Both the position numbers and the translations under genes were made by a program. The notes beneath the pieces were generated by a model that searched no databases, was not told where the DNA came from, and saw nothing but the letters and a program-made list of their open reading frames with translations. A DNA stretch of 62,102 nt, counting the filler, from Sluysia triapertura (lineage: Eukaryota): the NCBI GenBank assembly GCA_046118255.1. It is 5 parts of 5 records of this genome, joined end to end, with 100 filler letters (N's around TTAATTAATTAA, not from the genome) between each part and the next. Parts side by side here need not be neighbours in the genome. Positions count along the whole stretch, not along the records: positions 47,654 to 62,102 come from JBJNIA010258737.1; 4 more parts are not named here. The stretch is one strand, 5' to 3'. Position 1 is the first letter of the stretch. Every line of letters starts with the position of its first letter. Positions 10,303-54,429 of this stretch are shown in pieces.

Positions 10303-10431
10303 CTGATAAAAAAACGTTAAAAATATAACGAAAATGCATATGTAAAAAGGAAGTTTTTTGTCTTAAGTAATTAATTTTTTCAACATAATTCATTTTTTAT
10401 GATATAATATATAATAATATTTGAGAAATAA

Positions 10432-10968: not shown

Positions 10969-11123
10969 ATTTAAAATTTACACTTATTTAGCTAATTGTA
11001 TTAGTAAAACTCATTCTTTTTTAATTATTGTGATGATTTTACTAAAATATGAATTTCAACACTGTCCTATCCACAACCGAAAATGGGCAGTTAACAGCCG
11101 CCACATATGGTTAGTGAACAGGA

Positions 11124-18199: not shown

Positions 18200-18530
18200 C
18201 CATGAGAATCTAGTAAGTCAATTTCATAATACTATGAATGTTTATTTGATAGAAAATGTTTTTTGAAATATACTTTCACAAAGAAAATAATTCTTTAAAT
18301 ATTTTTTAATTTTTAATGAAGTTATAACAAAATAGAGTAAAATTGGATAACGACGACTACCTTTAATAATTAATTGACAATTAATTTTACAAAACGCAAA
18401 TGCAAAAACCAAAACTATAAAATCCCAAACGTCAGGATTAACATTGTGGTTGTCCAACTTTTTACTTAAACTTTTAATAAAAAATACTCTATCAAAACAT
18501 AACTCTTTACTACAACCCAAACCTCAAATT
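18200..18530 (-). mobile_element. Candidate PPT and start of a 3' LTR
   Basis: Minus strand reads GAGGTTTGGGT then TGTAGTAAAGAG (TG at 18514), downstream of the decayed ORFs at 18600-20912. The distal end is not resolved. Confidence 0.35.
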
Positions 18531-19869
18531 AGGCATCATACAAAGAATTAAATTTATAAAATCATTAAACTCGAAAATAACATATCTTTAAAATAGTTTA
18601 GAAATAAAATAATTGATTGGTATTAAGGATAATTCTAGTATGGTAATAATTAACATGAAGAAGTAGAAAATGGGATCACATAGGTGAAGGTGAAAACTTC
18701 CAGAGCCTTCTGAACACCTCATAAACTACTAAATAACTTTAGTACTTCAACAAAACCTTTAAACATAGAATAAGATTAAGTCTAAAAGTAGATTAATTAA
18801 TAAATCTTTTCTAATAGTCGAATAAAGTCGATAGTCAATAATATTATTAATAGTCAATAATAAAGTCAAAACAACATTTTAATATTTTTTAAGCAATCTA
18901 CAAAATAACAATTGTCTGAATAAAGAAATTGTTATAAAATCTTAAAGCAACTCCTTAATACGGGTTGCGTAATTATAAAATATAAATTATTAACTAAATT
19001 ATTAAGAAGTTGACCTACAACCTATAAACGAAAGTTTTAAATGAAGTACAAGTTTTAAAATTTCCATTAAGTATAAATATTAATTTCTAATAATACGTCT
19101 CCAACAGTGGTATAAATCGTATATATTAGGCTAACCGACTCCTTGGATATTTTGTAAGTTTAAGTTTTTTAAAAGAAATACTTGCAATATTCTTCGATTT
19201 CACAATGATTATAAACATTTTACTGTTCATTTCTAGAAATATTTAATTATGTTTGTATTATCATATTTCAGTTATTTGATATCATTTTTTCTTTTCTATT
19301 TTGTAACTGGACAATCCTAACAATTGGATTGAGAAAATACCAAAATATTTTACCTAACACAACAACAAAACAGTAACAATTGATAATGCAAATGAGAAGA
19401 TCCATGCTTTAAATAATTTTTGAATTTATTTTATAATTAAAAATAATAGTATTTTTTGGAGGATTTTATTGAAATAGTTTTTGTTCTTGTTTTGTGTTGA
19501 AAAATTTATATTTGATAATTGTGAATAATAGTTAATATTTTTCTTAGTGTTGCATCACCTCAGGTTTCTTTTCATAGATTGTTATATCCTTGACACTATT
19601 ATAAACGTTATTTTTAATCTCGTCATTTTAATCATTTTTAGTACTGCTTAATAGATATTTATAATAATACTAATTTGTAATTGATTTTTATTTAACCAGT
19701 AAATTGTAGTGCTGTTATTTATTTGATTTCCAAGAGCTTAATTTTTGGGGTAAATAATTATTGATATTAAGTAAGAAATTTATTTAAAATTTATATTTGA
19801 TCTAGTGAATACTTAAATTATTAAGATTCTTTTTAAGCTATGAGTTATCATAACTAATAATTTTTAAAG

Positions 19870-20912
19870 CCGCAACAATACATCCATTCCTAGTATCATG
19901 TCATCTGGACATTTTCTCATAACTCTAAATTTTATATCAATTTTATTCTGTCCAATTTCACATAATATTTTAATACTCCTAATATTTCAATTTCATCGCC
20001 AGTTACCCCCTGTGAGATAAGAACGTTGTTTAGCTAAATTATTAAGTTCTTTAGTAGTTAACAGTGATTCACTTATTAAAGAAGCTGCAGCTTCTGCATC
20101 TACTAGTGCAGATAACATTCTTCCGCACCCTTATAATTATTATTTGCGCATATCATATACACTAGATTTATTTGAGGAGGTTGATATAAGTTTTGTTTTT
20201 CTTCAGTAACGATTGTAATTACTTACTATGTAATCCGTATTTTTATATTTTTCTTCCATCATTTTAATTATCTTTGATCATGTACTTTATATTCTTTTAG
20301 TTCAGGTAATAATGTTTTATATTTATCGAAGTTAGAGAATTTGTTGGTAATGTATAAATTATGCTTTTGGTATTTAATGTTTCTTCTATATTTATAAGTA
20401 ATTTTCGTTAAATCAATAGGGTTTCTATATATTGGATTTGGAATTATTGTTTCATCGTCATAATCTTTGTTTTTTCTAGGTCTGCTTTGTTTTCTCTTAA
20501 AATTATTTGTTTCCTTATCTCTGTGGGTTTTTATTTAAATCCACTATGTGATCGTCATTAGCATTGGTAAAATCTATAACATTATTATTTTTATTGTTAT
20601 AATTCTCCCATTAATTCTTTTAGTAGTGATCTTAGAGTAAATCAACCCCATTGTCATCATTTATAAGTTCTTCTAAAGGTTTAGTGATGCCATAATAACT
20701 TTGGAAGTCATTGATTCTTTCTCATGGTTTCCATTCTTGAATGGATAACTGTAATTATTAGGTAATAATTTTCTATCATAAAAATATAAATCAACATTAG
20801 TTATGGTTGAATCATTTGACTTAAGTAATTCTATAATATCTCTTACTATTGAAATTACAGGGAATTTCATTGTAACATTTAAAGCATTATTAATGATTAT
20901 ACTTATTTTCAT
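19870..20912 (-). pseudogene. Ubiquitin-like domain - charged linker - retropepsin (retroviral-type aspartic protease), decayed
   Basis: N-terminus MKISIII..VTMKFP.ISIVRDIIELL....VDLYFYDRKL follows the Ubl pattern. Near 20130-20060: MLSALVDAEAAASLISE (D-T-G-A site degenerate). Then LTGVTGDEIEILG, and near 19900 CPDDMILGMD. Confidence 0.6.
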
Positions 20913-21033
20913 TAAATCTTTCGGGTTAATTTATCGTTCTTTTTGTCTTGTTTTTCTTAATAAGTTTATTGCTTTAGTCTTATATAAATTTTTTCCTTTA
21001 CTTACAACAGCTAATATTAATTTTGCAAGAAAT

Positions 21034-22359
21034 TGTATGAGTATGCGAATAAAACTTAAAGCTAGTGAGTTCACCAACGTATTGGTCTTACGAACTCAAT
21101 GGCCAACCGTTGGATTTTCTAACTTAAAAATTAAAATGGAGGTCACAAGGATTTTTGGTTTTAAATGTTTCAAATATTAATTTCCAGAAATTTAGTCAAT
21201 TATTAATACTTATGTAATCGTCAAGGATTAAGTCACACAAGCTAAAATATCAATTTAATATCAAAAAATAATTTAATAATAACACAAGTAATAATTTAGG
21301 GGCAGTTAAGTTTATAATCGATTTTATAAGATTTTAAAAACCTATAATAATGTGTATTTTACTTTGGTTTGGATATACAAACCATATAAATATAAAGGTA
21401 TTTTACTTAGGTTCAAGTTAAATGAACCTTTGTCAGTTTAAAAAGGATTTTTCTTAGATTCTTGTAAGAACCTGATTAGTTTGATTAGTTTAATAAATGA
21501 ATACTTAGGTTAACAAAATGAATTTATATTAATTGACAAAATATATAAATAACAATTATAATAATAAAATTTACAAAGATTATTACTTCAATAATCTTCA
21601 ATATAAAATTTTGCAAACAAGTAATTTACTTCGTTATCAATAAAGGATAACGCAATTAATTTAATTATAATTTAAGTTGAAATTTTAAAGATGCAATCTT
21701 AAATATTGCGAGAAATCTTATGATCAAAAAACTAACGTTAATATATATAAAGTAAAACAATCGAAGTTGAGTTGGCTCGAATAGTATCAAACTGAAAAAC
21801 GAATAGACTCGTAGGATTGCAATAACTGTTGCCGAACAAGTGATAAGCTTAAGCTTTAAAATCTTGAATGCAAGTCGTAAACTTTTTAAAATAAAATTGT
21901 GTGTGAGTTATGAAGAGCTTGCTGTATTTATAGTAGTTTATGTCAAGGTCAAAGAAAAACAATTAAATTAAAACAAATAAATTAAATAATTATAATAATT
22001 TATACAAATTAATCTTTTGACAATAATTTATACAACAGAATATTATACAAATTAATTTCTAATTAATTTTTTATAGAATATTAAAATTAAATTATACAAA
22101 TTAATTTCTAAATAATTTAAATCAATTAAAATAATTAAAATAAAATAATCAAAATAATAAAATAATCAAAATAAAACTAACTTGGTGAGACGATGAAAAA
22201 ATCTTTTGTTATCCTTTAAAATTAATAAAATTTATCCTTTAAAATTACTAAAATGATGAATTTTGAAATTTTATATTTATGATATTTATGACTTTATAAA
22301 TATTTATTTGAACAATAAAGTATATCTGGTTGTTTATACAAATGGTTGTTTATACTACA
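21034..22359 (-). repeat. LTR-like repeat, same family as 8930-9617
   Basis: Shared gtgaRttcaccaacgta..ccgttgga hairpin, tggaggt and aactaacg blocks. TATAAATA on the minus strand near 21925. Candidate TGTA...TACA termini. Confidence 0.55.
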
Positions 22360-22799
22360 AATTTGAACTTTACAGAAATGTTTATTAAAAGATTTAAGTT
22401 TAAAATGCTTGTTGAAAAGGTTGAAGTTGTTTTGATCTTGACTGATGATTGCAAAATAAGTTTTAATGTTTATTATAATNNNNNNNNNNNNNNNNNNNNN
22501 NNNNNNNNNNNNNNNNNNNNNNNTTAATTAATTAANNNNNNNNNNNNNNNNNNNNNNNNNNNNNNNNNNNNNNNNNNNNCTCTTAAACAATAAGACTGAA
22601 AATGATAATTTTTTAAAATAGCTATTCTTTCCTAGTAACGTCAAATTCCACTTTAAAATAAATCGAAATAAAATACGATTATAATGTATAAAAGTAGAAG
22701 TGATGAGTAGAGATGACAAAATAGAAATTAAAAAATAAAAAATAAGAGAATGATAAAATAACAATATTAAATTTTATATTGTAGCTTTGTGTGAATGTT

Positions 22800-22980
22800 A
22801 TAGTCGTAATTATTATGATTATTGTAAAAATATGTTGAATTTTGAGATAATATGTCGTGCGACAATTGTTTCTGATTTATGTATGTTATTTGTTGATTTT
22901 TATTAATTGTGTTAGGTTGGGTTGAAGTTTGTTTAACATTTTGTTTATGAAAATTATCTTTCGCAGTTGAATTCGCCACA
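22800..22980 (-). repeat. LTR-like repeat starting TGTGGCGAATTCAAC
   Basis: Homologous to 1590-1737. Confidence 0.55.
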
Positions 22981-24109
22981 GTCAAAGTAAAATATTTTCA
23001 ATAATAGAAATGGAAATAATACGAAAATAATATAGCATAAAAAATAATAAAAGTTTAATTTTATATTAATAAATAATAAAATATAAAAATAATGTCAATT
23101 CCAATAGCAATTACAATTGTTAAAATTGAAGATTTATTTTATTTTATCTTGAATATTTATTTTATAGTAGATATTAAAATTAACATAAATAGTGATCGTG
23201 AAAGACAACAATTGATATGTGGACGGTTTTGGGAAATGTGTGGAATGCTATGCGCTGACTGCAATTGATTGTGTTTTTATAGTTTTGATTATGTGCATTT
23301 GGGACAAGGTATTGAGAAAATATGGAGTGTTGGTTATGATATGACGCTGCAGCCAGTTTCTGTTTAATTACGGTATCACTTTGGTAATATATTTTTACTT
23401 TGATTCTAATTCATATTATAATTCTGTATAATTTATTCCATTATACTCGCCTTTCTAGTTAGTATTAACTTGTTAGCGGAATTTTTGTGCTTTATTGGCA
23501 TCTGTGTTTGATCCATAATTTTTCTGAAAGCTAATTAAGTATGAAGTATTCCTGTTTTCTTTATATTTCTTTGACAATTTCCAACTTCTACTTTGTTCCT
23601 GAATTATAAAGTGTTGTAAATTAAGTATAATATACTTTTATATGATTTTATTTTACATTACTTTCAACAAAATTTACAATAATTGTAAATCTATAAATGG
23701 AATTCTTACATTATTATTATTACAACTTTTTAAAATATGAAACAATAACATATGAACTTTATTTAAACCATCTTTAAAATTTCACCTAAAAACTTTAAAC
23801 AATTTAAACAAAATAGAGAATTTGAAGGATTTCCAAGTAAAATTTTCCAGATACATTATTTATCAAGTGAGTTCATTATAAGGTTATTCGGCAATTCATC
23901 ATTTATTAAACACACTATAAAATATATTTGAAATAACTGAGATTATGGACAAAAAATTTATTTATTTAAAGAACTTTTTTAAAAAAATTATTTAATTTAC
24001 AAATTATATATTGTGGCAGGATATAAATTTTTTAAAAACTTAAGGAAACATTATTTTTTTCACAAATATCTATACTAATTAATTTATTTATTTAATTTAT
24101 AAAAATAAA

Positions 24110-25260: not shown

Positions 25261-25639
25261 TATTAACGTTTAACATTTTCATTAATAATTTTACATATGT
25301 AAACTTTATTTATATTTGTAATAAATTGCAATTAATCAAAAAAAATTTCCTTTACAAAATGTTTTAAAAAATATATGGAAAAGTTATTATTCATTACATA
25401 ATAAAACAATTTACAATAAAAATTAAATACTTTTTTATAATTTTCAATAAAAATATAGAAGCACATTGATTTATAATACAAAATTGTAATATTACAGGAA
25501 ATTTGTGATACACTACTTCAGATGAGTATTATTTTGGCATACTATCCACTATTTTATTATTATTTATATTTAAGTTATAATAATATTATTATTATTACTG
25601 TTGTTATTATTATTATTCGAAATTTTTAATAATACTGCA

Positions 25640-25970
25640 AATACTATATCCTTGGAGTCATCTCTTAGGAAATGGATTGAACTTCCAAGTGCTATTTTCT
25701 TTCCTTTTACATCAACATCACACCCAAACTTCTCTATTGTTTCAGTAATATCATCATGGATGGAATAAATGTCATTATCCTTATGTTCAAAATTTTGTAT
25801 ATGGTAGGTATATGCAGGCTGTTTTTAATCTACGTTTTAGTTTTTTTACATGTATAAATTTGAGCAACATTTCATAAAAACATATAAGGAGTAAAATGTT
25901 TATATTTTGAAATAATTTTGGTGCTATGAAAAACTTCAGTCATCATCTGTATAACTGAAATAATTAGGAT
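25640..25970 (-). pseudogene. Spliced gene fragment, unknown product
   Basis: Open exon PAYTYHIQNFEHKDNDIYSIHDDITETIEKFGCDVDVKGKKIALGSS..., preceded by a ~31-bp GT-AG intron. The upstream exon has stops. Confidence 0.3.
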
Positions 25971-27196: not shown

Positions 27197-28233
27197 TGAT
27201 AGAAATGAAGCATTTCTCAGAATGGAATCTGTGAAGGCTTCTAGATGTATTCAAATATTGTTAAAGACATCAGTAATTTTGAAAATTGTTCTCAACCAGA
27301 TAAAAGAATGTTTTGGAAAAGTGTTGATTATATTTATTGTATGATAAATAGTTTAGTTAAATGCTGCAAATTGCTTAATTTGCAAGATAAATTAAAATAT
27401 TATGAAAGTGTATTACTTAATGAATTTCCATGTTTCTTTTTTCAAATAAAGAGTTATCGAGCAAAATGTGTAGAGTCCGTTGCACATTTGACAACAATTG
27501 CGAAACGTGTATCATTAAATTAATTAATCATAATAAGATTCCTATGTCATTAGCAGTGCTGCCTTTAAAAATGAAACACCAAGATCAGTGAAAATTTTAA
27601 ATTCGGATTTACGCTAATTGAAGACTAGAAGAGTATACTTTTGTCATGTTTTGCAAGAAAAGACAAGAATTTTAATGAAATAAGCTTTTGTGCGGTTAAT
27701 GGTGCCAGTTAGAGAACACGATAGGGTTATTTTTTAGAATCGTTTAAATTATTGATCTTTAGTGTAGATGCGTTTGATATGACAAAACATGACAAAGTAT
27801 ACTCTTCTAGTCTTTAATTCGCGTAAATCCGAATTTAAAATTTTCATTGATCTTTGTGTTTCATTTTTTAAAGGCAGTGCTGCTATTGACATAAGAATAT
27901 TAATTTAATGTTACACAAGGTTCTTAGTGTTGCACATATGGTTACACGTTTCACAATTGTTGTCAAATGTGCAACGGACTCTACACATTTTGCTCGATAA
28001 CTCTTTATTTGAAAAAAACATGGAAATTTAGTAAGTAATACACTTTGAGAACATTCATTATAATGTTTTAAGTTATTTTGTACATTAAGCAGTTTGCAGT
28101 ATTTAACTACACTATTTAACATACAATAAATATAATCATCAATTTTCAAAATTACTGATGTCTCTAATAATATTTTGAATTCCTCTAGAATCCTACATAG
28201 ATTCCATTTTGAGAAATGTTTCATCTTTATCAA
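27197..28233. repeat. Inverted (tail-to-tail) duplication of the 3' part of a decayed gene; ~450-bp arms, ~130-bp spacer
   Basis: 27197-27653 matches the reverse complement of 27782-28233. Both arms encode FPCFFQIKSYRAKCVESVAHLTT. Confidence 0.9.
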
Positions 28234-31200
28234 CGTCATTATTTATTCTAATTATATTTAAAACTTGCAAAAAATCATAATATTTAAAATTAAAGTCTCA
28301 TTCATTGTGAAAAATGCTTCATCTAAGAATTATTCCCAATATTTGGCTATTTTTAAAATACACAGAAAAATATAAAAATAATTTTAAATTCAATAATTTT
28401 TGATAATTAAAGCTTTTTTTGTAAAATTAAAAATAAATTATAATAAAAATAATATCAAAAAAGGCGAAAGAAAAATAGTAAAAATAATACTATATTATAA
28501 TTACAATAAAGGAATTAATGACGCATTCAAACAAAAAGAATGCACAATTTTTAATTAATTCAAATTTTTGATTAATATACATAATTTTTAATTAATATAT
28601 AATTTTTTAATTAATGTATACTTTTTAATCAATACTTATTTTTTAACAAAAACAATTCATTTAATAACAACATTCATTTATTGTGTAATTTGCAAACTTT
28701 ATAACTTTAAACTTAAATATAATTTTTATTTTTCAACGTACAATTTTTGCCAAATAACTACTTGTTACTTTATTTTTTTATATAAAATTTATGAATAACA
28801 AAGTCGCATAAATATAAACTTTATGGAATTAAAGATTTTAAGTTCATAATTATCTTATTCAAAGACTTTAAGTAATGTCATAAATTGAATAAGAATTAAC
28901 AAGAATAAGTTTTCTAATTAAAATTATTAAGTTGTTAATGATTATTTTATTTCACAAGCGCCCCAAACGCCATTATTATTCTTTAATCATAAAACACAAC
29001 CTCGGTAATATGAAGTATAATCCTTGTACATTTAAATGAAAAAATGAAATTAAACGTATAACGTATATTAAACTGTAATTTAAAAACATTTTATATGAAG
29101 ACCAAACGTAGCGTATAAGAAATATTTAAAGTTAAAACTTAAAATGATAATTTAATCAAACAAAATTTTCTTTCAACAAAGAATCAAAATACTTAGATTT
29201 TATACACTATTAAAATTATTTAAATCAAAAAATCATACTGTAGACAAATTCTACTAGAACTTAGTTACAATTTGATATGTTATTATTATTATTATCATTA
29301 TCATTATTATTACTTTTAATAATATTAATATTATTACCAGAAATGTATTTATATATTAAATTTTAATAAAACATATTAATTATAACATTCTTGCACATTC
29401 AGACGTAACTATCAAAAATAATTTATACTTCAAATAATTTCGTTTTCTTTGTATTTTTAAAATATATTTTGCAATATTTTTAAGCAGTTAACTGATCAGT
29501 TTTTGAAAAAATGTCTTTTTTGAATGCTTAATTAATTTTACATGTCACGTGATTAGCAGAGTTAGTTCACATAGTCTTAATATTCAATGAGTTGTACTTT
29601 TAGTTTTGTTTGTTTCAATATCAAAATTTAATTCGTTTAATGGAAGTATAATACTGTATTATTCTTCCAATATGGTGATTAAAATATTAAGTCATTTAAT
29701 AAATATGTAAAAAATAATGATTAAACGAAAAAAATAATATGAATAAAATTAATTTCGCCTTTTTACGTAGTGCTCGCTTTTTAGCGAATTTTTAAGTCTG
29801 AATTGTACACTCATCCACGATAAAATATGAAACTTTAAATTTATTCCAGTAAAAGTGTCAAGACAAATCACAAAAATACCAATTACAAAAATAGTAATAC
29901 GTTGACTATAATTGCTTAATAGACTTTATCTGATTTTACATCAAATTCAATTCTTTGTCAAGACACTATTTAATTTTATAATAATTTTTATTATTTTTTT
30001 ATTTAGTTACTATAATTGTTGCTATTTTATTGTTTTATTTTATTTAATTGTTTGTTTTATAAGCAAGTTACATAATATTGTTTTGAAATTTGTCAATATG
30101 TTTTCTCTTGTTATTTTTTCAATATCTATTTTCAATGTTTCAATAAATATCTAAATCTGCCTCGTATTTACTATTGTTTAACTAAGGAATTCATTATTAC
30201 TAATTTGGATAAAGATAATGGAAAGTGTTTTGTTGATATCAAAAATTATTTTGGTGCACTTTTGAAGGAATATTTATTAAATTTATTTGGATTGATTTTT
30301 AAATAAACATTATTGTTATTGATTATTACAATACATGTATTGAAATTTTAATTTTAAAAATTCTAATAATAAAATTAAATTTACTTAAAACTGAATAGTA
30401 AAAATAATCTAAAGGGCATTCATTCAAAATGTATGTTAAATGCATTATAATTAAACAATTAGACGATATTAGTTTATTAAACATAAAATGTTGGAACATC
30501 TCTGAACATTTTGTTGGTAGGACTTTAAATAGACTAAGACAAGAATCGAAATTAACTAAAAAGAGATGAGAATAAAAATCAAAACATGGCACTTGAAGTA
30601 ACAAACAAAGTATTTCTTCGCTTACAGCATGTTGTTGTGGCAATTGGGGTATTGGATTGTGTCCAAATAATATTTAAACAGCCACTCGTTTGCAGGTTCC
30701 GTTTGTAAAAATCGTCAGCATATATTGGATAACATTCATATATTTTGTTAATCAATGCTGTGGTGGCCAACTTTTAAATTAAAAAATTCAACATAATTAT
30801 CTCAATTGTAATATCACACTTACTCAAATTTTATATTTTACTTCCTTAGATTTATTAAAACTTCTTCACATTTCAAAACATTTTAAATTAACAACTTTAC
30901 AACATTAAAATAATATTTACATTCAAACCATTAATGTACATTTAAAAATTCATTTAAAACATCTTAATTCATTATTTCACAACATTAGAATCACAGTTTA
31001 TATCTCAAATTATCAATTATACATATTAAAATTAACCCAAAACGTTTTAAGTTCTCAATCCCTTCACACTCAATCATTGATACCTTGGAAAAACATTAAG
31101 CTCTTAATCATTAACTTCTTAATCATTTTAATACCTTAGACAAATAAAACTTGATTTAAGTTAATTTTATTTATTTTGTCAAGAAATTTTTAAATTTTAA

Positions 31201-31666
31201 TAAAAGAAAAGATCCTGAAAAGATTTAAATGAAATAAGTTTATGCATTTTGTTATTTTTATTTTTCATTTTATTATTACAATTTTATGATTATTATTTTT
31301 ATTAATCAATTATTTTCATTANNNNNNNNNNNNNNNNNNNNNNNNNNNNNNNNNNNNNNNNNNNNNNNNNNNNNNNNNNNNNNNNNNNNNNNNNNNNNNN
31401 NNNNNNNNNNNNNNNNNNNNNNNNNNNNNNNNNNNNNNNNNNNNNNNNNGTTTTATTAATTTTAGTTGCTATCTACACAATTTTTGTTACTTAATCAATC
31501 TTTTGGTGTTGGCCATGTTATCTGTCATTATTGATAGACATTTTTAATTAAAATTATTTAATAATAACACATGCCATTTGCAAGCATACATTCTTACAAC
31601 TGAATTAATATCAATATAGTTACTTGAATGGCCGTCCAATTAATTCTAGTTTTGTATAATACCGTT

Positions 31667-31680
31667 ATTGGACGTCCAAT
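31667..31680. promoter_or_regulatory. Perfect palindrome ATTGGACGTCCAAT (back-to-back CCAAT boxes around GACGTC)
   Basis: An identical 14-mer at 51355-51368. Both lie upstream of CCCH ORFs. Confidence 0.6.
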
Positions 31681-31789
31681 CATCAGATATAGCACAATTT
31701 GGCCGATTTGAAAATTAATTAAAAATTGTTGATAAAACAAAACATGTGCACAATTTTTACTCAAGGTTAAAAAATTAAGATTAATGAAT

Positions 31790-33170
31790 TAAAATGATGA
31801 GTTGACTAAGTTTATTAGAAGTCATTAAAGACGGTGATTTGCATCAAAATTAGTCGAATTTTTACGTTTTATTTATATTCGACTAAAGTCACCATCATCA
31901 TCATTAAGCAATGTCAAATAAAATTATTTTATAAATCTCACTAATGATAATTTATCTTATAAACGGCAAAACATTGTCGAGTTTTCGAAATTAATAACAC
32001 TATATGCTAATAAAACATCTTGTTTTAATGATAAGACAGAAACGTCAAAATTCCTCGACGATAAGAATGCTTCTCATTGTAATCCTATGATAGCTTTGGT
32101 AGTAAATCAACATTTAGAATAAATTAAATATTATGAAGAAACTATTGTGGCTAATTTTGTAATCATTAGTAATACAAAACATTCTGTAGCATCATTGATA
32201 AATCTCAAGACAAAATTAACTTATACAAAGTTTGAAGCTGATGAATTCAATGTCATTAATTTAATGTTAGATTGGTATATTCTACAATCATATTTAAACG
32301 ATTCAAGAAAATTAGAAAAGATCACTCACAGAAGCAGTTCTAGTCTTTCTTCATCAACACAAATAAAATTGTAATCTTTATCATTAGTGTCTAAAATCAT
32401 GTTACCAATTACGTTAATATCGGAACAATCGAATGTAGCAATTAATGCCATTTTAGATGTAGATCGTGGTATTCAGGTAAAAATGACAGAATTCGAATTC
32501 GTTATGATTAATCACGTTTCTATTTGTCAAAATGTCACTGACACTATCATAAATAAACTTCTAGACATTATGTTTTCGTACTTCATGTTTAGAACAACAT
32601 GAAGTCAATTTTAAGTCTAGACTACTACAATTAATGCCTATCGTCTCGTATAAAAATTCATCTTCCATAATAAAACAATTATTTCAATCATTGAGTAATA
32701 CAAATTGTACAGATTTTCGACTTAATGTTCGTAACATAATGTTAAGAAAAACGATCCTAGGATAACAAAATGACAGACATAGAGGTGACGTACCTTTCGT
32801 CTCAAATGTTCTGCGAAGTCAAACAAGTTTTGTTGATGTTCAAGACAATGCCAATTTACTAACGACGAAAGGATTCAAAAACAGAGGTAAACGAAGTAAT
32901 AAACTTAATCCTATAATCACTTCCACTAACAAAAAGAAGAATATTATCAGTTCTAAAATCACTATTTCGATTGCAACACTTATCGTTCAAAAACGCTTAG
33001 CACAATGTAGTTCTCAAACTAACCAATTTGGATTATGTATTAAGTCTGGTAAAGCCTGTAAATATTATCACATTATCGAAGAAATTGATCATAACGGAAT
33101 TGAAGATACCAATTACAATCAACATATGAACCAGATAAATCTACTCAGCCAAACATCGAAAATTTAGGAA
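31790..33170 (+). pseudogene. Decayed intronless ORF with C-terminal CCCH zinc finger, copy A
   Basis: QCSSQTNQFGLCIKSGKACKYYH (C-x9-C-x6-C-x3-H). NDSRKLE is shared with copy B (NDSRIIE). Several stops. Confidence 0.6.
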
Positions 33171-33579
33171 ACGAACGGAAGTCTTACCACTGACAAGTAT
33201 TACCGAATATACTTGATAATAACTTATTTTCAAAAATAAAATTGATTATTATTTATATTCAATTATTTAACTTTAACTATTTTTATTTAAGAAAACGCGA
33301 ACTTGTTGTTCTGATGACGTTTCCAGAAACAGGCCTAATTTTTAAAATGATAGGACATTTTACACTAGGTTTAATCGATTTTATGTTTCCATATAATAAA
33401 AATTAATTTGTCACTTTATTTTACCTTTTTTTATTCACAAATAGAATTTGTAAATTATTCAAATTAAAGTCAATGACATTTTTATAATTAACAAACATAA
33501 TGTTCACTCAATTTTTATAAATTTCAAGTTTAAATTAAATTTAAAAACTTTAAAAATAATATACTTAACCTATTTACTC

Positions 33580-34170
33580 TTAAAAATGCATTGTTACACA
33601 AGCATCATGATTTAAAGGTTGTTGAAAAATTGATGATAAAAATGCATGATCAACTACAACAATAATATTCTTATTAAAGCTTTTGCTAATTTTAACAACT
33701 TCTTCAATATCAACAATTTTCATCATTGGATTAGATGGAGTTTCAATCCATATCATTTTTGTAGATGAAGTTAAACATCTCTTTAATAGTCTAAAATCTT
33801 GTAAATCAATAGCTTCAAATTTAATTCCAAATTTCAGAGTTACTTTCATAAAATAAAGTATAATTCTTCCATAAACATCAATATAATATAAAATTTCATC
33901 CGGATTAAATTAATTAGTTATAGAAATTAATGCAGCTAATCCTGAAGCGAAAGTAGTACAATATTGACCATTTTCCATTACTGCTATGGTTGCTTCTAAT
34001 ATTTCTCTATTATAATTACTACCGCGTGAATGATCGTATTTTAAAGGTTCGTTTGTTGATTCTCGTTTAAAAGTTGTAGATAATGAAATTGGTGGTCACA
34101 CTTTACCATCGTGATCATTAGGGTGATGACTAATGTGTAAGATATGTGTCGATAATTTTGAATTTATTTT
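33580..34170 (-). pseudogene. CTH: Cystathionine gamma-lyase pseudogene (N-terminal half)
   Basis: PPISLSTTFK, YDHSRGSN, FASGLAA, DVYG, TKMIWIETPSNPMMKIVDI, VVVDHAF..QQPL. In-frame stops. The PLP-lysine motif HSATKY is replaced by HF*E*I. Confidence 0.9.
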
Positions 34171-34579: not shown

Positions 34580-34784
34580 CATTATTATTATTACTGTTGT
34601 TATCATTATCATTTTTTGACCATCTGTTAACTTTTTTCTATCTAAATTTAAACAAAGAAATTGTAAAGTGTTTCTGGTTTTGTTTCTATGATAACTGTCT
34701 ACTGTTTTATTATTGTTGTTATTTTCAATAAAAAGATTATATTACTGTTATTTTTATTGTTGTTTTGGTTGTTGTTAGAATCAT

Positions 34785-35186
34785 TTATTTGAACTTGACG
34801 ATGAGTGTAGTTAAGATACTGTTGCTAGGTGTGGAAAAACAACAACAAATTAGATAACACAATTGACAGCATGTTTTCCATAAATATCCCAAAAATATTA
34901 TTGTTAATGTCAATGTATTGATGAGCAATAAAATAATGGTTTCTGTTGACGTCTGTTGAGGATGATGATGGTGATGATTATTGGTTATTTTATCTATAGA
35001 TTGTTGTAACGGTAAATGATTGGATGTTATGAAAATTTGTTGTGGCACATGGTTTTACAGTACTGCATCCAAGGATCCGTTAGTACTCGGAAATAGAGTG
35101 TTAGTTGAAGATGCTGTATTGGTGGTGTTGGCGCTGTTACTGTTTGCTGTTGACTTTGATGAATTTTCTTGTTTGAGTGTTGCCAC
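34785..35186 (-). pseudogene. S/T/N-rich stalk, TM helix and Cys-rich tail of a small membrane protein, truncated by repeat C
   Basis: STANSNSANTTNTASSTNT..., one stop, then TIILLLINTLTLTIIFLGYLW followed by KTCCQLCYLICCCF. Confidence 0.4.
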
Positions 35187-35949
35187 TGTGGTGGCCAACT
35201 CATTAATTTTAACAAATTTTACTAAAAATTTTATTCCAAACATTTCATAACCACATAAACTTTCAAAACATACAATATACACTTTAAAATTCATTTAAAA
35301 CATTTTTTATATATAATCCTAATTCAACACCGCACAACAACCTCGCAGAATTCGTCGAAACTGTTTCTATATCTTATTCCTTTTCATATCCACCAAAATA
35401 AACTCTCATTTTTCAAAACATTTTAAATTTACAATCTTATAACATACAAACCACATTCAATACCATCAATTTATACTAAAAAAATTCATCCAAAATATTT
35501 TATTCGTCATTCCATAACAATCCAACTACAACCACATTTGAAATTAACTACCAGACACCTTCAAATATTCTAAATTCAAACGATCTTTTATCATTAAATC
35601 CTAACAGCTAAACTTTATTTTTATTCAAAACACCAATGTACATTTATAATCCATTTCAAACATTTATGTTATTTCAAAATAAGCAAATCGTCACTTTTCA
35701 ATTCTCAAGCTCATCTTCAGTCAAAAACATAAATTAACATATAAAAATTCATTGTAAACATTCTACACATTATCAGACAGCATTATAACCACAATCACAC
35801 CTTAAAACATCAAACATACATTCAAAACTAATTCAAACTAACTTGCATTTAAACATGTTTATGTCAAAAAAGTTAAACATGTCAAGAAATATTAAAGATC
35901 TAAAAGCAATATAATGCAAAATTTGAGATTTTTAAGAATCTAAAGACTT

Positions 35950-36022
<73 letters not shown>
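35187..36022 (+). repeat. Composite repeat unit C (5' part), ends in (AAT)n at a gap
   Basis: TGTGGTGGCCAAC start, C/A-rich blocks, and a gtcaagaaat..aaagatc tail as in units A and B. Confidence 0.65.
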
Positions 36023-37108
36023 NNNNNNNNNNNNNNNNNNNNNNNNNNNNNNNNNNNNNNNNNNNNTTAATTAATTAANNNNNNNNNNNNNNNNNNNNNN
36101 NNNNNNNNNNNNNNNNNNNNNNAAAAAGCAATTATTTTAATTCCTCGATTATTAAAAAAATTACAAAAAATTTTTTTTAAAGTAAAATACTTGTATTAAT
36201 TTAAATGATTATTTGTTTATTTTAATTAAATTTTTTTTAATTAGTTATTTATTAGATTGATATTTTTGATAAATGTAATTAACTATTTAATATTAACTTA
36301 TATTTTATATTTATTAGTTTATCTCTGCGAAAACTTTGGAATTTATCAAAATAGTTCGTTATTATCAATATTCTTAATTTACATTTAAGTTTTTATAATA
36401 CTAACTTAAAATGTATGTTAAAATTAAGATATATTTATTAGTTCATTTGTCGTTTGATAATACAATGTGTATTTTAATTAAAAATTGAAAGTGTCACTTT
36501 ATGAATATTATAAAATTATTTGAATTTCCTAAAGAATAACACGTTTTTTTCATATTATGTAACTTTATTTAATTTTTTTGAAAATTAAAGTCACATTGTA
36601 GATATTTTCTGAAATTAGAGTTTCGTATCATAAAACATCTAGACAATAAATTGAAATCTCAATCACTAATGGTTATCAATTTTATTTATAGTACTATTTT
36701 AAATTTTGCAAAAACAAACTATTGAAATAGTTTGATTATTGACTGTTACCTTCTTTGATTTTGCTTAATTTTTTACATTTTTACATTTTGCTTATAATTT
36801 TATATATAATTTTATATAATTAAAATTTTTTATTTGTAATTGTTTATTTCTCAAAATAAGACTATTTTTCAAAGCACTTGTCGATATACAATATTGGCTG
36901 AAATATATTGAGTTAAAGTTAAATAAGTGATGTAATCTACACATGTAAATTAAAACTAAAATGTAAAATTAATAAATAAAATAAGCAAATAAAGATATTA
37001 TATATTATAATTAGTTTAAAATAAAGTAATATGAATAATTAATAGTATTTGTGTTATAATAGTATAATTGTTATAGCTTTTATATAAACTTATAACTAAT
37101 ACTAATAC

Positions 37109-40319: not shown

Positions 40320-41814
40320 AAGTGACTCTGTTCAATATGAACACTAGCGTACAAATTTTTTTCAAATGTTCACATTAAACATTAGTAGGAAAATACATTA
40401 ACATAAGAATTACAAAGATTTTCAGAAAAATTGCATTTATTATACCTATTTATTACTATTTTTATTTCTTTGATAAAGTCTGTGACTTTTAATTACCTAG
40501 ATGCTTTTTCTTCTTGAATTTCATCAATCAGATCGCATATTTTGTACATCTTATCAGGAATATTAGCTTGAAAGGCTTCGTATCCTGTCATTACTACATG
40601 TTCTACACTTCAACCTCTTTTTCAATACTTCTCTCCTAGAGTTCATCAAATTTTGGATTAAACTCAAAACATGGAAAATCATCACATTCAGCATTCACTT
40701 CTTTAACATACGTATTTTCGAAAGACTTGGTAAAACAATTAGAGATATTCACTGGTTTTACACTATTCTATGCTTTCGAAATTCAAACCACTGCTTGATA
40801 CAAATCATATCTCTTGAATTAAAATTCTTATAATAGTCTTTAAAACTTTTTATAATACTTTTTAATACCTTTGAAAAAGAATAATGTGGTGAGAAAAAGA
40901 ATAATTCGATGTTGCTTAGTTCGAGGTCTGTTGGGTTGTCTAACAATATAAAATGTTCCGCTCCTCTGCATTCGTTTTTTAACCAATCTTGAAAAATTGT
41001 TAGCGTCATAGAAGACTTTGTATCCCAACGGTAATAAACAGATATTTTTTTAGATAGAGATCTTTAAAACAACGAGGTTTATCCGATCTGCCTATCACTA
41101 AAGACTTTAACTTTTCTCCTATCATATTTACTCCAAAGAGTATAGTATTTCGATCTTTAGAAAACTTATCGTTTGCCTTATCCTCTTTAGAAATTGCATA
41201 TGTTCTGTTTAATGAACATTTCCAGAATAGTCCGTTTAAAGTCACAATTCTAAACATTTCTATCTTCACATTCTTTAAACTTTGACTTAAAATTAAAATA
41301 TACCTTTCATCCACGGTTTTTGATTCCCCAATAATTCTTTTGGATGAATTATTTAAGCAAGCCAATTTCTAAAGTGTTGCACTATATCACCACGGATGCT
41401 GATATTTCTTGTTCTTTGAATATGGAACCATTCATACAGGATTGCATCAACTTGATATCCACTATGTAAATGTGTTTTTCTTTTTTGTTTGGTATTCAAT
41501 TTTGACTTCAAAATGGAGTCTCTAGATTTCATAAGATTATTTATACAACCTAAGGAAAGATTGTATTTTGATGAAAAAAACGTTGAGAACAACCTTTATC
41601 TTTTAATTTTAAGAAGTTGTGCTTTTTTTCGATGCTTAAAAACAGCTAAAAATGAATATTTAAACAAAAAATGGATAATTTATTAATTATTGTTCATTCA
41701 AAATAAATAGTGTTCGTATTATAAAACTCAATTTTCATGAAAACCATATGGTTTTCAATTTTTGACTAAAATGTTCATATTAAACTCTGTTCGTAATAAG
41801 CAGGATTCATACTG
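40320..41814 (-). mobile_element. Tigger/pogo (CENP-B/DDE_1) DNA transposon relic
   Basis: VDAILYEWFHIQRTRNISIRGDIV (HTH), GLFWKCSLNRT, SKDRNTILFGVNMIGEKLKSLVIGRSDKPRCFK, ILLDN. Frameshifted. CAGTA-type end at about 41814. Confidence 0.9.
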
Positions 41815-49028: not shown

Positions 49029-50640
49029 GTCTACTAGAGAATAGAACAGAGTTTATTTAGTCTGGATTAAATTTTAATTTTTTTATTATTCAATAATATT
49101 TATTAAAACTCACAACACACAATAATTAATTATGATTATATTTTAATAATATAATATAATGTTTATGTATGTATATTTAAAATAGATCGCCTTTTGAAAA
49201 GTGCATACTATTTTAATAGTTAATAATAGTTAGTTTCCTCTTTTCTCTTACACTCAGTCCACCCTATAATAAATCACAAAAATAAAAACAATGTACTTAC
49301 AATTCCTTATTCTGCATGCCAGTATACGATTGATAATCCAATAGCAATTCAAAAACAGATGTATAGTAAATCTTAAATGATAAAAATGCAGTATTCGTAT
49401 AATATTTTAGCCACAATTCTGAGTATTGTTGTAAATCTTGTTCATAAAATGATAATATATGAGAAAATGATTGAAATATCGGTTTAAATTTGTTTCTATT
49501 ACCCCAATTAAGGCTGCATTGATCGAACGCGGCCAATATTTCGTCAGTTATTTTCTAAAATACATTTTATATTTCCATCAAATAAGAACAATTATTAAAA
49601 CCTATTATTTATTTAGATTGTTCGCATATCATTGTCCAAATTTACATTTTTCAACTTTTAAGCATTGTAGTATAGCAAAATAATATATCGTTATTTATAT
49701 GTATTATTGTAATTTTTCAAATTAAAATTAAGCATTTCAAATGTAATTTATGTTTCAGAAATTTTATTTATACATAGTCAAAGTTCGTTAAAAATTTTAA
49801 AAAGCAGTTATTATGTTTAGAGAATGAAATAATATGACATATAGTGAATCTAATAGTTGCATTTGTTGCTCGTTTTAAAGATTTAAAGACAACAAATTTG
49901 ACCTGAAAAAAGAATGACCAAGCATGCCCATCATGCTTTTGGGAATGACAAAGAAAATACCTTGATGTTAGTATTTAAAACTCTAAACAATTAAGTAAAA
50001 ATCATAAATGTATTTTTTAGAAATATGTGGTTGCATGCAATTACAAAATAATTGTATCAAGAGTGGTAATAGGAAAATATCAGAATAATGATTAGATAAA
50101 CATGTGTCCAAAACCGATGATTAACGATAGAAAATACTCCTGTGGTGGCCAACCTTAAATTCCAAATTCAAATTAATCTTCTTTATTCGCAATATCATAT
50201 GTATTAACACTTTATATTTTACCTACCCAGATCTATTAGAACCTTTTCATACTTTAAAACATTTAAATTCACAATCTTTCAACATCCAAACTATACTTAC
50301 ATTTAAAAATTCATTTTATTTATTATCCCATAACATTAGAACCATAAATATAGATTGAATCATCAAATATCTATTTCGAAATTAATCCAAAACATTCAAC
50401 TTCACAATTTTTCAACACTCAACCTTTTATATCATTGAAAAACATTAAATTCACATTCTAAAACCATTTTAAACATTGCAATCAAAATGACATTCCTTTA
50501 ACATTTTTAGTTTTGCATTATTTCCTTTAAACATTCTCTTATCACCTCTTTCCACAATCCATACCTTTGTAATCACCGAATAAAGTCTATTTCAAAGGAA
50601 ATAAGAATTAGACCTAATAATTAAAGAAAGAAATGAAGTA

Positions 50641-50780
50641 CACCTATCCCCCGATTTACACGGTAGATACGTTCCTGAGAAAAACGCAAAAAAAACTTAT
50701 TTGGAAAAACGATAAAAACAGACAAAAACTTATTTGGAAAACCGTGTAAAACAAGTACCGTGTAAATCGGAGGATAGGTG
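50641..50780. mobile_element. 140-bp MITE with TA target duplication (Tc1/pogo type)
   Basis: TA|CACCTATCCCCCGATTTACACGGTA...TACCGTGTAAATCGGAGGATAGGTG|TA; 25-bp TIR with one mismatch. Confidence 0.9.
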
Positions 50781-51073
50781 TATTTACATAAATAAGAAAG
50801 AAAAGATCTAAAAAGAAATTTATTTAAAAGAACTTAAGTTAAAAGAATTTTTATTCATTTAATTTTAGTTTAAAGAGAAGAGATTTTAAGAATTTCAAGA
50901 ATTTAAGATATTTATAAATTTATGCATTTTCTTGGTACTTATTTTTATTACTATTATTTATTATTATTTTGTTACACATTTCGTTTTTATTTTACATTAT
51001 TATTATCATTATTTAATGTTATTATTTTTATCATTATCACCATTATTTATAAAACCACCATGTTTAACAATTT

Positions 51074-51104
<31 letters not shown>

Positions 51105-51353
51105 CACCCATTATAGTTACTATCACCTCTATAACCACTTTTATATTTCATTTCAATTAAAATCAGTACATATCAATTGGTAAACTGTCGACAAATGACA
51201 GTTGTTTTGGACACAATCAATTTGGTATTTTGAAATACATACAAACATACATGCAAACACCATCAACTATTAGTATGTTTAATTTACTGTGCATACAGTC
51301 ATACAGTGCACACTAGCGTTTTACAGCACTTTTGTTCATAATAGTTTGTATTT

Positions 51354-51369
51354 GATTGGACGTCCAATC
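51354..51369. promoter_or_regulatory. 16-bp palindrome GATTGGACGTCCAATC with an extra CCAAT just downstream
   Basis: Seen directly; same core as 31667-31680. Confidence 0.6.
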
Positions 51370-51626
51370 CTAAGCAAGCCAATCAACAATGATATCATAA
51401 TTTGCTGTATTTGAGGGTAAAGGATGTTAAAAAAGGAATTTTTTAGATTGTACTATTAATAGCATAGTATCAAAAATTCAGAAACAACATAATTATTAAA
51501 ATTTTTAATAAAAGTAAAACGTTCACGTTTAAAAAATAATAAAACTTCAATATTAGTTTATTTTTTGGCATTAATGGCATTAATATTTAATTTATGTAGA
51601 ATCAAAAATGAAGCCATGACAGATTC

Positions 51627-52593
51627 ATGAAAAATAATTTCAGTGATTTGGAAAGATCAATTAGCTTAATGCGAGGTCGTAATAGAGTTGATATTAATGT
51701 ACAAATTGAAATGCCTATTGAACAAAAAGTAGATGCAATTGACATTATAATAATGAGGCTATATCAAGACAGTAAGTATCTAGATAATGAAGTGATTGGA
51801 AAAGAGAATACAACTGTTCGTCATGAAACTTTGTTTGTTCAAATCGTTCGTTCATTAAGATGATAGCATTAGTTGAAATCATATATTATTCTCCAAATAG
51901 TCAAGTTGGATACTTACGTACATGATATTTTTATCAATCAATAACAGATGAGAAAGATAGTAATGATAATTGTATGTTAAGTAGAGTTAAAGATGTAGTG
52001 TCACGGGTTGTTGATCGCGCAGTGAAGGAGGACAATTAATCCATGTTATCAGCTGATATTCAAGATAAATCTATATCAATTACAAGTACAAATTCGATAA
52101 AAAATGATAAAGTTTTTAAAGATCGAACAAGTAAGTATGCGAAGAGTCATCAATAAAGTCATACTAACAAACGATTCAAGAATAATTGAAAATATATCAA
52201 ATGTAAAATTATACTTCAAAGCAATACCGTCTCACTCTTACGATGAAATTACGAATAAATTTATCAGTATTAGTAAATTATATTTCCCCAATGACCATTC
52301 CTAGACACATTGAGGAAGCTCACTGTAACATGATCAGAAATAATTTGTTTAAAACTATGTCGAGCAACAAATTCACCTCAATTGAAGCAAATCGGAATTT
52401 AGTTAGATTTTTACAATGTCCATTCCAATCCAGTGAGACAGGACGATGCATCAAGTCTGGTTCAGCTTGCGAATTCTATCATACAGTGGATCAAATAAGT
52501 TATCTCGGCACTAATATATTACTATTCCATGATCATTTTGAACCTTATGGAAACCATACTCTATGGCAATGCAACCAGCAGTTCAATATGTAA
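51627..52593 (+). pseudogene. Decayed intronless ORF with C-terminal CCCH zinc finger, copy B
   Basis: QCPFQSSETGRCIKSGSACEFYH. Track ORFs 51627.., 52104.. and 52243.. are collinear fragments. AATAAA at about 52628. Confidence 0.65.
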
Positions 52594-53484
52594 AAAGTAT
52601 TATGAAGTTGGTGGGGAAGTTCAATTCAATAAAGAAATAAAAAACAAAAAAAATTAAAGTAAATATGAATTTTCATACTCATGCATTAACTAATTTTGAT
52701 TTTTCTTATTCTAGGATGCTACAACCTAAGGAAGAGACACTACAGTATCCGGAACACATCACGCCCAATAACTATAACGTCATTAACAAACTTAGTTTTG
52801 ATAAAAATAAATGTTATAATAATTGAACCTTTTTATAGTAAATTTAAAATTAAAATTTATAAAAAGAATGATTATAAATTAATGAAATTCTATAAAAATG
52901 TTGGTAAAATTAATATAAATATCTATAGTTTAAAAATCGATAATATGAACTTACAAAATTTTCTTTTCAATAATACAACGAAACTGCTTTTAACCCGAAA
53001 ACTCCATAGAGCTGTTATTCTCTACAATTTAGATGATGAACACTATTCTAAAATACGCATAGCATAAGTGGAAGCAATCAACGGAAACAGAATATATTAC
53101 TCTTCTTCACAATAATACTAAGTCATATTGCAAAATAACTAAACAGAAAAATATATTAAGTAGTTTCATAGATTATTTAATTATCAAATGATTATCAAAA
53201 CAAACAGATCGCAAGATTACTAGGTGGTGGCAAGAAATATATAAAAGTAAATATGTTTTAGTGAATAGCGATATAATTACTTTTTGTTACATTTTGATGT
53301 GTGCTTCAAGCTAATATTTATAATTCAGAGTTATAAATAGTATAAACTATTCGTATTTTACTTCAGTACCAAATACAGTGCTTCTTTATTGTAAAATTTC
53401 AAATATATCTAGATTAGAATTGGTTTATTTAATAAAGCATACTTTTCCTGTTAACTTTCATCAACTTTTAAAACACTCTTTAAC

Positions 53485-53820: not shown

Positions 53821-53826
53821 GTTCGC

Positions 53827-54116
53827 TGACGAATCATCTTTAAAAATCTACCGCATATGGTTAAATATCAAGTTTAACTTAGAAACTAATAGTTACGTAC
53901 CGCGTTATAGGAATTCGTGTTATATGGAGACTATCGCGTTTCAACAATTTTAACTGAATACAAAACGAACATAAACATATAAACACCGAGCAATAAAAAT
54001 AGTTTAATTGGGGATCGCGCTATGCAGCGATTCACTATATGTGAAATATTGTGTTATTTTCTATGTTAAACTTGCCATTTAACCCTCTCTGGTAGATTTT
54101 TAAAGATGATTCGTCA
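53827..54116. repeat. Fold-back element / MITE with ~60-bp inverted arms
   Basis: tgacgaatcatctttaaaaatctacc...caagtttaacttagaaa pairs with tttctatgttaaacttg...ggtagatttttaaagatgattcgtca. Confidence 0.75.
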
Positions 54117-54429
54117 ACCAATAGGAATTTTTAAATGTCTTTGTCAAACATATTGCATTCCCTAGATGGATAAACTTTTTTGAGTTAAAGAAAAGGATAA
54201 AAGAAATTCTCAATACAAGAAACTATTGACCATTTTATTTCATTGTTTCTCGTGTTTAGGTCGATAGAATTTAGTTTAAAACCCTCTTTTTATTCGTGTG
54301 ATGGATATTTCAATGTCTTTCTCAATCACTTGCTGAAATTTACAATGATTCTGATTCAGAAACAGATATTTAAAGCAATTCGGATACTGATTATTATTAC
54401 CAATCAAGTGATAATAAGACAGATCTAAA

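Follow-up and report, generated by a model that had tools for sequence, protein, structure and literature searches.

The stretch of DNA considered here, referred to as the 'window', consists of 62,102 nucleotides, filler included, from Sluysia triapertura (assembly GCA_046118255.1), and is made up of five parts from five records joined end to end. It is 25% GC, contains five assembly gaps or gap pairs, and is rich in transposon debris. Found in it twice, both times on the plus strand, is a unit with a fixed order of parts: a left end, an arm rich in C and A, a microsatellite, a palindrome of CCAAT boxes, a long open reading frame (ORF) closing with a CCCH finger, and a right end that is AT-rich. 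Copy A spans 30759–33584 (2826 bp, including a gap of 128 N's at 31322–31449 whose true size is uncertain) and copy B spans 50141–53000 (2860 bp, including a nested miniature inverted-repeat transposable element, or MITE). A sequence-only reading of this DNA had recognized the same order of parts in both copies, which stands; the right limits it gave, 33340 and 52770, are replaced by 33584 and 53000, making copy B 230 bp longer than was supposed.

Copies A and B very probably represent, at full length, a non-autonomous mobile family that is dispersed and has units of about 2.7–2.8 kb, parts in fixed order, and 5-bp target-site duplications (TSDs). As had been noted previously, no match to a reverse transcriptase (RT) or transposase falls inside of the units; 140 frames were scanned, 19 out of 28 that are long and 120 out of 129 that are shorter and GC-richer, with one more besides. 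The window likewise yielded no autonomous partner. With ends and TSDs now defined, the earlier suggestion of a non-autonomous mobile unit carrying a putatively RNA-binding gene is upheld.

Insertion sites, ends, and copy number

Copy A is found inside of a gene. Its right flank, read on the minus strand (33585–34164), is the 5' part of a pseudogene which stops at the residues MH and whose best solved relatives, by PDB search, are cystathionine gamma-lyases; the Pfam model is matched there over positions 91–194, ending at that same MH. On the other side of the unit, also on the minus strand, 30734–30757 reads H-stop-LTKYMN, the continuation of the pyridoxal phosphate (PLP)-lysine motif. Copy A thus splits a cystathionine gamma-lyase pseudogene within its PLP-lysine motif. 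The pentamer AATGC both precedes the unit (30754–30758) and follows it, directly after AAA (33585–33589). Removal of copy A, with one AATGC retained, restores the frame as MH-x-LTKYMN, versus H-satkylg in the profile. That profile was built from 7 bacterial ORFs, with the motif H-S-x-T-K-Y confirmed in 4 of them. Against it the right flank alone scores 175.8 bits (model 4–195), and the insertion-free site with its single AATGC scores 184.2 bits (model 5–204), ungapped. T-K-Y is encoded at 21 of 123244 positions in the window. As the host frame is restored with a single AATGC, copy A is delimited to 30759–33584.

Since copy A interrupts a gene, and since the flanks of the copies are unrelated, a simple segmental duplication extending into those flanks, which the sequence-only reading had named as an outcome that would undo it, is ruled out. 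The repeated unit, that is, is an insertion and is real.

ACTCC, the five bases before the initial TG of copy B (50136–50140), recurs at 53001–53005, directly after AAA, as one of two downstream places. This recurrence is weak if taken alone, as it is seen in 9.5% of shuffles of a 300-bp window, and AAA followed by ACTCC within 200 bp of the end of copy B predicted from copy A is seen in 0.9% of 20000 shuffles. Measured from the resulting right ends, distances in copies A and B, respectively, are 578 and 583 nt for the first Cys of the finger, 293 and 286 nt for an intron-like acceptor, 189 and 194 nt for AATAAA, and 29 and 31 nt for AATAAT, so that all four landmarks agree to within 7 nt. A 5-bp duplication is seen therefore with both of the complete copies, and the extent of copy B is based on its TSD, on landmark distances like those of copy A, and on a step in depth (below). 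In the flanks of copy B none of 12 frames matched Pfam, such that its empty site is without a gene check. A single-copy contig (48308–50141, depth 19.4) from the run described below stops matching at 50141 with 84 letters remaining and may be behaving as an insertion-free allele would.

The left end is the most constant part of the unit. The sequence TGTGGTGGCCAAC, which begins TGTGG, is invariant at 30759 (copy A), at 50141–50153 (copy B), and at 35187 (a copy C), i.e., in three of three copies, with none of 100 shuffles giving three occurrences even when one mismatch is allowed. A C precedes the left end in all three, and nothing further upstream is alike (left flank z 1.3). The presence of a third 5' part at 35187, as previously claimed, is thereby borne out. 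Copy C (35187–36022, plus strand) consists of the left end, a longer arm, and the microsatellite, followed by an assembly gap (36023–36122) beyond which its right end would lie; as the copy is cut by that gap, no TSD could be found for it. Adjoining its left end is low-complexity, Q/N/S/H-rich, coding-like sequence (34620–35186, minus strand), the other half of which was not found. A further fragment, D (12388–12918, plus strand), holds only arm sub-repeats, and is related to copy A (z 9.6), as the sequence-only reading had it for 12.4 kb, though it lacks the end motif.

Certain points qualify these junctions. From the left flank of copy A alone the enzyme goes undetected in Pfam and PDB searches, and no later exon of the cystathionine gamma-lyase was found in the window, so that continuation of the host gene depends on eight codons. 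It is possible too that the unit starts with the preceding C, with a 4-bp duplication, or that the duplication is a degenerate one of 10–11 bp. Neither an inverted right end nor an 8-bp duplication was found for any copy, nor was an inverted repeat found anywhere downstream.

Three other candidates for end-associated features were set aside. An inner repeat at 32630 in copy A matches at 7 of 8 positions, which 9 of 200 shuffles also reach; a fourth GTGGTGGC, at 53224, lies outside of copy B and is taken as chance; and for a possible likeness between the left motif and a primer site for Ile-tRNA, no repeat is found upstream of copy B.

Depth was taken from one public run, X1, with contigs matched to the region of copy B at 80% likeness; the run contains a fraction of 0.53 of the words of copy B. 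No RNA run was listed as containing copy B, which speaks neither for nor against its expression. Long single-copy contigs of this run have depths of 19–33. The bin before copy B is at 30.6 and the next bin, starting at 50132, is at 3650, with bins over the palindrome and ORF then at 123, 225, 244, and 437, the finger bin at 1056, and subsequent bins at 443, 113, and 47. Depth thus rises at the left end, is 123–3650 inside of copy B, and drops in the bin containing 53000, where a value of 113 is compatible with an element of depth ~200–225 that ends at 53000. Summed contig depth is not copy number. The whole of copy B nonetheless is multi-copy in this run, and is so between single-copy flanks. 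The arm is at ~110 times the depth of the flank contigs, versus 4–32 times for other parts of copy B, an excess that may come from its sub-repeats or instead from arm-only copies. As contigs from this run are too short for linkage, the association of arm with finger depends on copies A and B.

The arm, the palindrome, and the finger gene

The C/A-rich arm of copy B (50154–50620, plus strand, its right limit approximate) consists of diverged sub-repeats that are ~180–260 bp apart, with spacings of 182 in copy B and of 195 and 263 in copy C. Arms of copies A and B are 69% identical over 343 columns (E 2e-31, z 19.4), in keeping with the C/A-rich repeats first described. Following the arm in copy B is a 140-bp MITE (50641–50780), TA-flanked, with terminal inverted repeats (TIRs) that are 93% identical, and with a depth in run X1 of over 15000. 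It was missing from the earlier list of parts, is absent from copies A and C, and is outside of the unit family proper. Then come an AT-rich block which is common to copies A and C (z 2.9) and an ATT/ATC microsatellite (50790–51104, plus strand). A microsatellite had been listed as a shared part, and as a slot it is; contents of the slot differ, being ATT plus (ATC)10 in copy B, degenerate ATT followed by a gap in copy A, and (ATA)23 followed by a gap in copy C.

The palindrome of copy B, GATTGGACGTCCAATC (51354–51369), is perfect over 16 bp and consists of two inverted CCAAT boxes around ACGT. That of copy A lies at 31667–31680. Their common core, ATTGGACGTCCAAT, occurs at 31667 and at 51355, with two matches in none of 100 shuffles, and the two indeed are identical, as had been stated. 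From its position the palindrome may be a promoter.

The reading frame that follows is now broken in both copies, so that the idea of copies A and B today spreading a working gene has to be given up. In copy A an N-terminal frame (31838–32600, plus strand) has 3 stops in 254 codons, versus a mean of 17 with shuffles, none of 2000 of which had 3 or fewer, and this is clearly a decayed ORF. In copy B the N-terminal pieces (51627–52206, plus strand) contain stops and frame changes and match no family; they are followed by a stop-free frame of 128 codons (52207–52593, plus strand), which contains the finger. One contig of run X1 (depth 212) omits 66 nt of this finger-bearing frame (52275–52342), a multiple of three.

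The fingers themselves, at 33006–33071 in copy A and at 52417–52482 in copy B (both plus strand), have the pattern C-x9-C-x6-C-x3-H, and are the sole two such fingers shared within the window. The pattern thus was correctly reported, while its spacing, which had been thought unusual, appears to be Unkempt-like and not unique. Both fingers match one Pfam family, zf-CCCH_UNK (PF25427), and that family alone, the better match being that of copy B (E 9e-05; 22.8 bits against a curated cut-off of 31.1). Matches of the copy B finger in PDB are weak, with tristetraprolin the best (E 0.09) and Unkempt chains at 0.2–3.4, and the finger of copy A had no match there; the weak match to 5ELH, 22 residues against 22, is consistent with an ungapped C-x9-C-x6-C-x3-H. 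In comparison with Unkempt CCCH fingers (PF25427; PDB 5ELH, 5ELK), then, the same family is matched and the spacing is consistent, but the match is under the Pfam cut-off, there is one clear finger rather than an array, and the rest of the ORF is unmatched. The finger by this comparison appears to resemble that of Unkempt, and, going by family, the cargo protein most likely would be RNA-binding through it.

That the ORFs have diverged strongly, as was originally observed, is certainly so. From palindrome to finger, copies A and B are unalignable as DNA (z -0.6) or as protein, N-terminal parts included. Around the finger, however, 16 of 35 residues are identical, with 8 of these encoded by different codons, including 3 of the 4 zinc ligands. 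Identity of residues by way of different codons implies that the finger protein was under constraint during divergence of the subfamilies, and the keeping of zinc ligands through synonymous change implies that this protein once mattered to the element.

Searches for relatives returned little, and are weak for queries that are as short, broken, or diverged as these: none among 544 candidates using the A/B finger alignment against longer proteins, none using HMMER over 1.84 billion representatives, none among 1126 candidates for the N-terminal part of copy A, none of 10 by exact look-up, and none of 17 among viral contigs. An Atlas search gave zf-CCCH clusters at 0.77, a lead only, and a metagenome pattern scan gave two loci, both unrelated on inspection. 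AlphaFold models have a mean pLDDT of 33. In the literature searched, most subscription papers being outside of it, no CCCH gene was found in an LTR (long terminal repeat) or non-autonomous element.

Downstream of the finger, both copies contain an intron-like GT..AG tract on the plus strand, of 95 nt and 14% GC in copy A (33197–33291) and of 56 nt and 21% GC in copy B (52659–52714); genes elsewhere in the window have intron-like tracts of ~40 nt, which, along with the cystathionine gamma-lyase likeness of the host enzyme, indicate a eukaryote and probably an animal. Past the acceptor in copy B is a GC-richer stretch (52715–52830, plus strand, with AATAAA at 52806), which had been described as a hammerhead-like motif. 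That description finds no support. Using Rfam, no hammerhead is seen in the window, nor is there one in the stretch of copy A or copy B with E allowed to reach 10. In copy A there is a CTGATGA..GAAA 19 nt past the acceptor, without a closing pair for helix II, and in copy B the stretch has no intact core. Sense-strand folds are no better than those of shuffles (z 0.1 and 0.3), with the antisense of copy A at z -2.1. The G10.1-C11.1 pair is kept even in minimal Penelope ribozymes (PMC4209133). A hammerhead thus is disfavoured by the missing Rfam match, the missing helix II in copy A, the missing core in copy B, and the shuffle-like folds. Because the stretch follows an AT-rich GT..AG tract in both copies, it is more simply read, and more likely, as a short, putatively spliced last exon along with 3' untranslated region.

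To what class might the unit belong?

The best single guess is that the unit comes from a large gypsy-like element, being its solo LTR or instead a derivative of that LTR, and that it encloses an accessory gene, a guess which nevertheless is a tentative one, falling a little short of an even chance. It is ranked first owing to the initial TG, the fixed 5 bp, size, internal repeats, an AATAAA found ~190 nt before the end, gypsy debris within the window, and planarian precedents. The left end fits TGTNR in three of three copies, a start that is common to Gypsy LTRs and to Ginger (PMC2836005). The debris includes protease-like frames, an integrase-like frame (rve_3, E 0.007), and two homologous RING ORFs, that is, gypsy remnants with accessory ORFs, and in planarians large gypsy elements are described that contain tandem repeats as well as accessory domains (PMC6431247). 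Under this reading a gypsy-type DDE integrase, acting in trans, would make a staggered 5-bp cut; the C/A-rich arm would correspond to U3-like enhancer repeats, the palindrome to a promoter of the accessory gene, and the AATAAA to a polyadenylation signal; and surviving copies would be products of LTR-LTR recombination which later decayed. The cargo protein putatively would use its finger to bind either RNA of the element itself or silencing factors of the host.

Solo LTRs of large gypsy-like elements (Burro/GYPSM1 of planarians, Ogre; PMC6431247) are like the unit in that they begin with TG, make duplications of 5 bp, are kilobases long, contain internal tandem repeats, and belong to families with accessory genes. 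The unit differs from them in having AAA rather than CA as its right end and no terminal inverted dinucleotides, in containing an accessory ORF with an intron-like tract, and in being linked to no internal domain. That review names no CCCH protein (0 occurrences).

A number of observations weigh against an LTR origin. The proposal of a giant LTR, though still the leading one, is at odds with both of the complete copies, in which the right end is AAA and no CA is present. Integrase requires a conserved CA at both ends. When the left end is reversed, furthermore, the right ends agree with it at only 5 and 6 of 14 positions, and the final 60 bp of copies A and B are hardly alike (z 1.5), in contrast to the left 13 bp, which do not vary. 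In the window no copy was seen to adjoin a primer-binding site, polypurine tract, or gag-pol. A sense-oriented tract resembling an intron is hard to reconcile with an RNA intermediate. Ends of a second family of similar plan (at 22980 and ~1738, described below) cannot be aligned with those of copies A, B, or C, so that their link to the protease remnant says little. The class is based, lastly, upon two complete copies, with the window, one run, and the literature as evidence.

Less likely, yet the strongest of the alternatives, is a non-autonomous cut-and-paste DNA transposon, Ginger-like or of another DDE type, which captured an intron-bearing piece of an Unkempt-like gene as a multicopy Pack-TIR and which either lost its right inverted repeat or came to use a cryptic end in its place. 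Such an origin would explain the intron-like tract seen in both copies as well as the constancy of the 5-bp duplication. A TGTNR left end together with introns are Ginger features, Ginger1 and Ginger2/TDD elements are 2.6–7 kb, and TDD-4/5 give 5-bp duplications (PMC2836005). The unit differs, though, in lacking TIRs, which in Ginger are 40–270 bp, with no inverted repeat at either right end or downstream; in lacking an integrase-like transposase; and in its targets, AATGC and ACTCC, which match neither the CCGG/CCGT of Ginger1 nor the RTATAY of Ginger2. The reading requires moreover that a right repeat was lost. Gene-carrying multicopy units do exist in animals, if rarely, with 4 multicopy Pack-TIRs (1.4%) in one survey, e.g., Ssk-FB4, a non-autonomous unit amplifying coding cargo as is the case here (PMC8277862), and Turmoil-1 captured an RRM along with its intron, which is RNA-binding cargo as well (PMC2572040). 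Pack-TIR as such fits poorly, that is, there is no flanking TIR pair, homolog searches with protein found no parent gene, and, unlike in those systems, the cargo has diverged under protein-level constraint. Rejected was hAT (Buster), which calls for an 8-bp duplication of the form nnnTAnnn and TIRs of 11–16 bp (PMC3517528, PMC12637253): No exact 8-bp repeat is found downstream of any copy, and the near-match in copy A, reached by 9 of 200 shuffles, is overruled by the restored gene frame.

Asymmetry of the ends, with AAA on the right in both copies and AATAAT found 29–31 nt before, would fit instead an ORF1-only, non-LTR retroposon with an internal promoter, 5' repeated monomers, one RNA-binding ORF, a 3' end set at a polyadenylation site, and a LINE (long interspersed element) RT supplied in trans. 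HAL1 ('half-L1') is of this kind, encoding ORF1p alone, being ~2.8 kb, and having asymmetric ends that are A-rich at the 3' side (PMC5753468). This reading is an improbable one. Each of the two duplications measures exactly 5 bp, only 3–5 A's make up the tail rather than a real poly(A), and the intron-like tract has been retained. The left end is exact in 3 of 4 arms in the window, with both finger-bearing copies retaining it intact, and in run X1 there is no rise in depth toward the 3' end of copy B, unlike what is seen with 5'-truncating retroposons. Nor was RT found in the 140 frames.

About as improbable, and more radical, is that the unequal ends should be taken at face value: an element with an invariant, integrase-type TGTGG left end, an A-rich, polyadenylation-like right end, a fixed 5-bp duplication, a promoter of its own, and a CCCH gene with an intron, which selection would have maintained in the different subfamilies. 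Such an element would join features of LTR, DNA, and non-LTR elements while fitting none. Since every candidate family fails in some defining feature, the unit is assigned here to no family. What moved it presumably was a DDE enzyme, integrase or transposase, supplied in trans. In its base-exact ends and its datable disruption of a host gene the unit is of interest in any case. Were it an LTR, then a whole accessory gene would be found within an LTR, and one with a non-canonical right end; were the unequal ends to hold genome-wide, then it is the chemistry of insertion that would need explanation.

Tyrosine-recombinase elements (Ngaro, Crypton) make no true duplication, having instead split or fixed short direct repeats. 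They were rejected given that repeats differ between copies, that the repeat of copy A is within the target's frame, and that no long internal direct repeat pair is present; a term search of one paper on these elements (PMC3783388) found no CCCH.

Quite unlikely is a Penelope-like unit with a hammerhead and a retained intron, or else a rolling-circle unit of Helentron/HINE type. Penelope-like elements do keep introns, one of which ends at ribozyme helix I (PMC4209133; PMC8557442), bringing to mind the CTGATGA..GAAA found just past the acceptor in copy A, but as a ribozyme the motif is disfavoured for the reasons already given. HINEs combine subterminal motifs that do not vary with central repeats, microsatellites, and a palindrome, and they insert at T-rich targets without duplication, with paired subTIRs and with the palindrome near the 3' end (PMC4067079). 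Here, by contrast, there are a 5-bp duplication and non-T flanks, and the palindrome is 1.6–1.9 kb from the right end, on which grounds Helentron/HINE was rejected. Least credible of all is that segmental duplication long ago combined a host CCCH gene family with a high-copy 5' repeat having no relation to it, which would account for the far deeper arm (110 versus 4–32 times), for an arm without finger in copies C and D, and for the unalignable middles of copies A and B, but which is largely refuted by the empty-site frame at copy A, where arm and finger both lie between duplication copies inside of a gene, with flanks unrelated, copy C being interrupted by a gap, and several arm sub-repeats inflating depth.

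Other elements in the window

A second family with a similar plan is seen at 22600–22981 and 1350–1740 (both minus strand), with ends CTGTGGCGAATTCAAC and GTATGGTGAATCCAAC that are followed by a C/A-rich arm. Its members are mutually related (z 14.8) but unalignable to copies A, B, and C beyond the motif (z <0), and no duplication was found. At 18444–18800 (plus strand) is a degenerate start, TTGTGGTTGTCCAAC, followed by C/A-rich sequence whose likeness to copies A and B is borderline, with 11 of 200 shuffles reaching it in each case. A 54-bp motif with CCAAC/ACGT elements is common to 8959–9010 and 21065–21118 (81%); on the minus strand, one occurrence is upstream of a Nudix cluster and the other is upstream of a broken gag-protease-like frame (~20000–21000). 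That cluster (3181–7330, minus strand) consists of two tandem, diverged Nudix genes, 46% identical over 137 aa and each with an intron-like tract of ~40 nt. These look like Dcp2 decapping enzymes; a search with a Nudix ORF gave no relative among 44 candidates.

An ORF at 15945–16403 (minus strand) has a terminal Cys cluster reminiscent of a MYND finger, and no Pfam match. An Atlas search for 9622–10362 yielded no usable match. An inverted pair of related ORF pieces (27245–27600, plus strand; 27883–28239, minus strand), 73–79% identical as amino acids over short stretches, matches no family. Remnants of piggyBac-like and pogo-like transposases, along with a further MITE with 68-bp arms, occupy 54300–56700, 25573–25824, 40758–41595, and 53822–54121. 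At 57834–60215 (plus strand) a gypsy-like integrase, which is broken, precedes further broken ORFs whose N-terminus is hydrophobic; these may be env-like, and they match no family. The two RING ORFs, at 10435–10977 (minus strand) and 61023–61393 (plus strand), are homologous at 31–47%, the latter of which lies between a protease-like frame (60275–60919) and a purine run accompanied, near 61464, by TGTAATAG, which resembles the start of an LTR.

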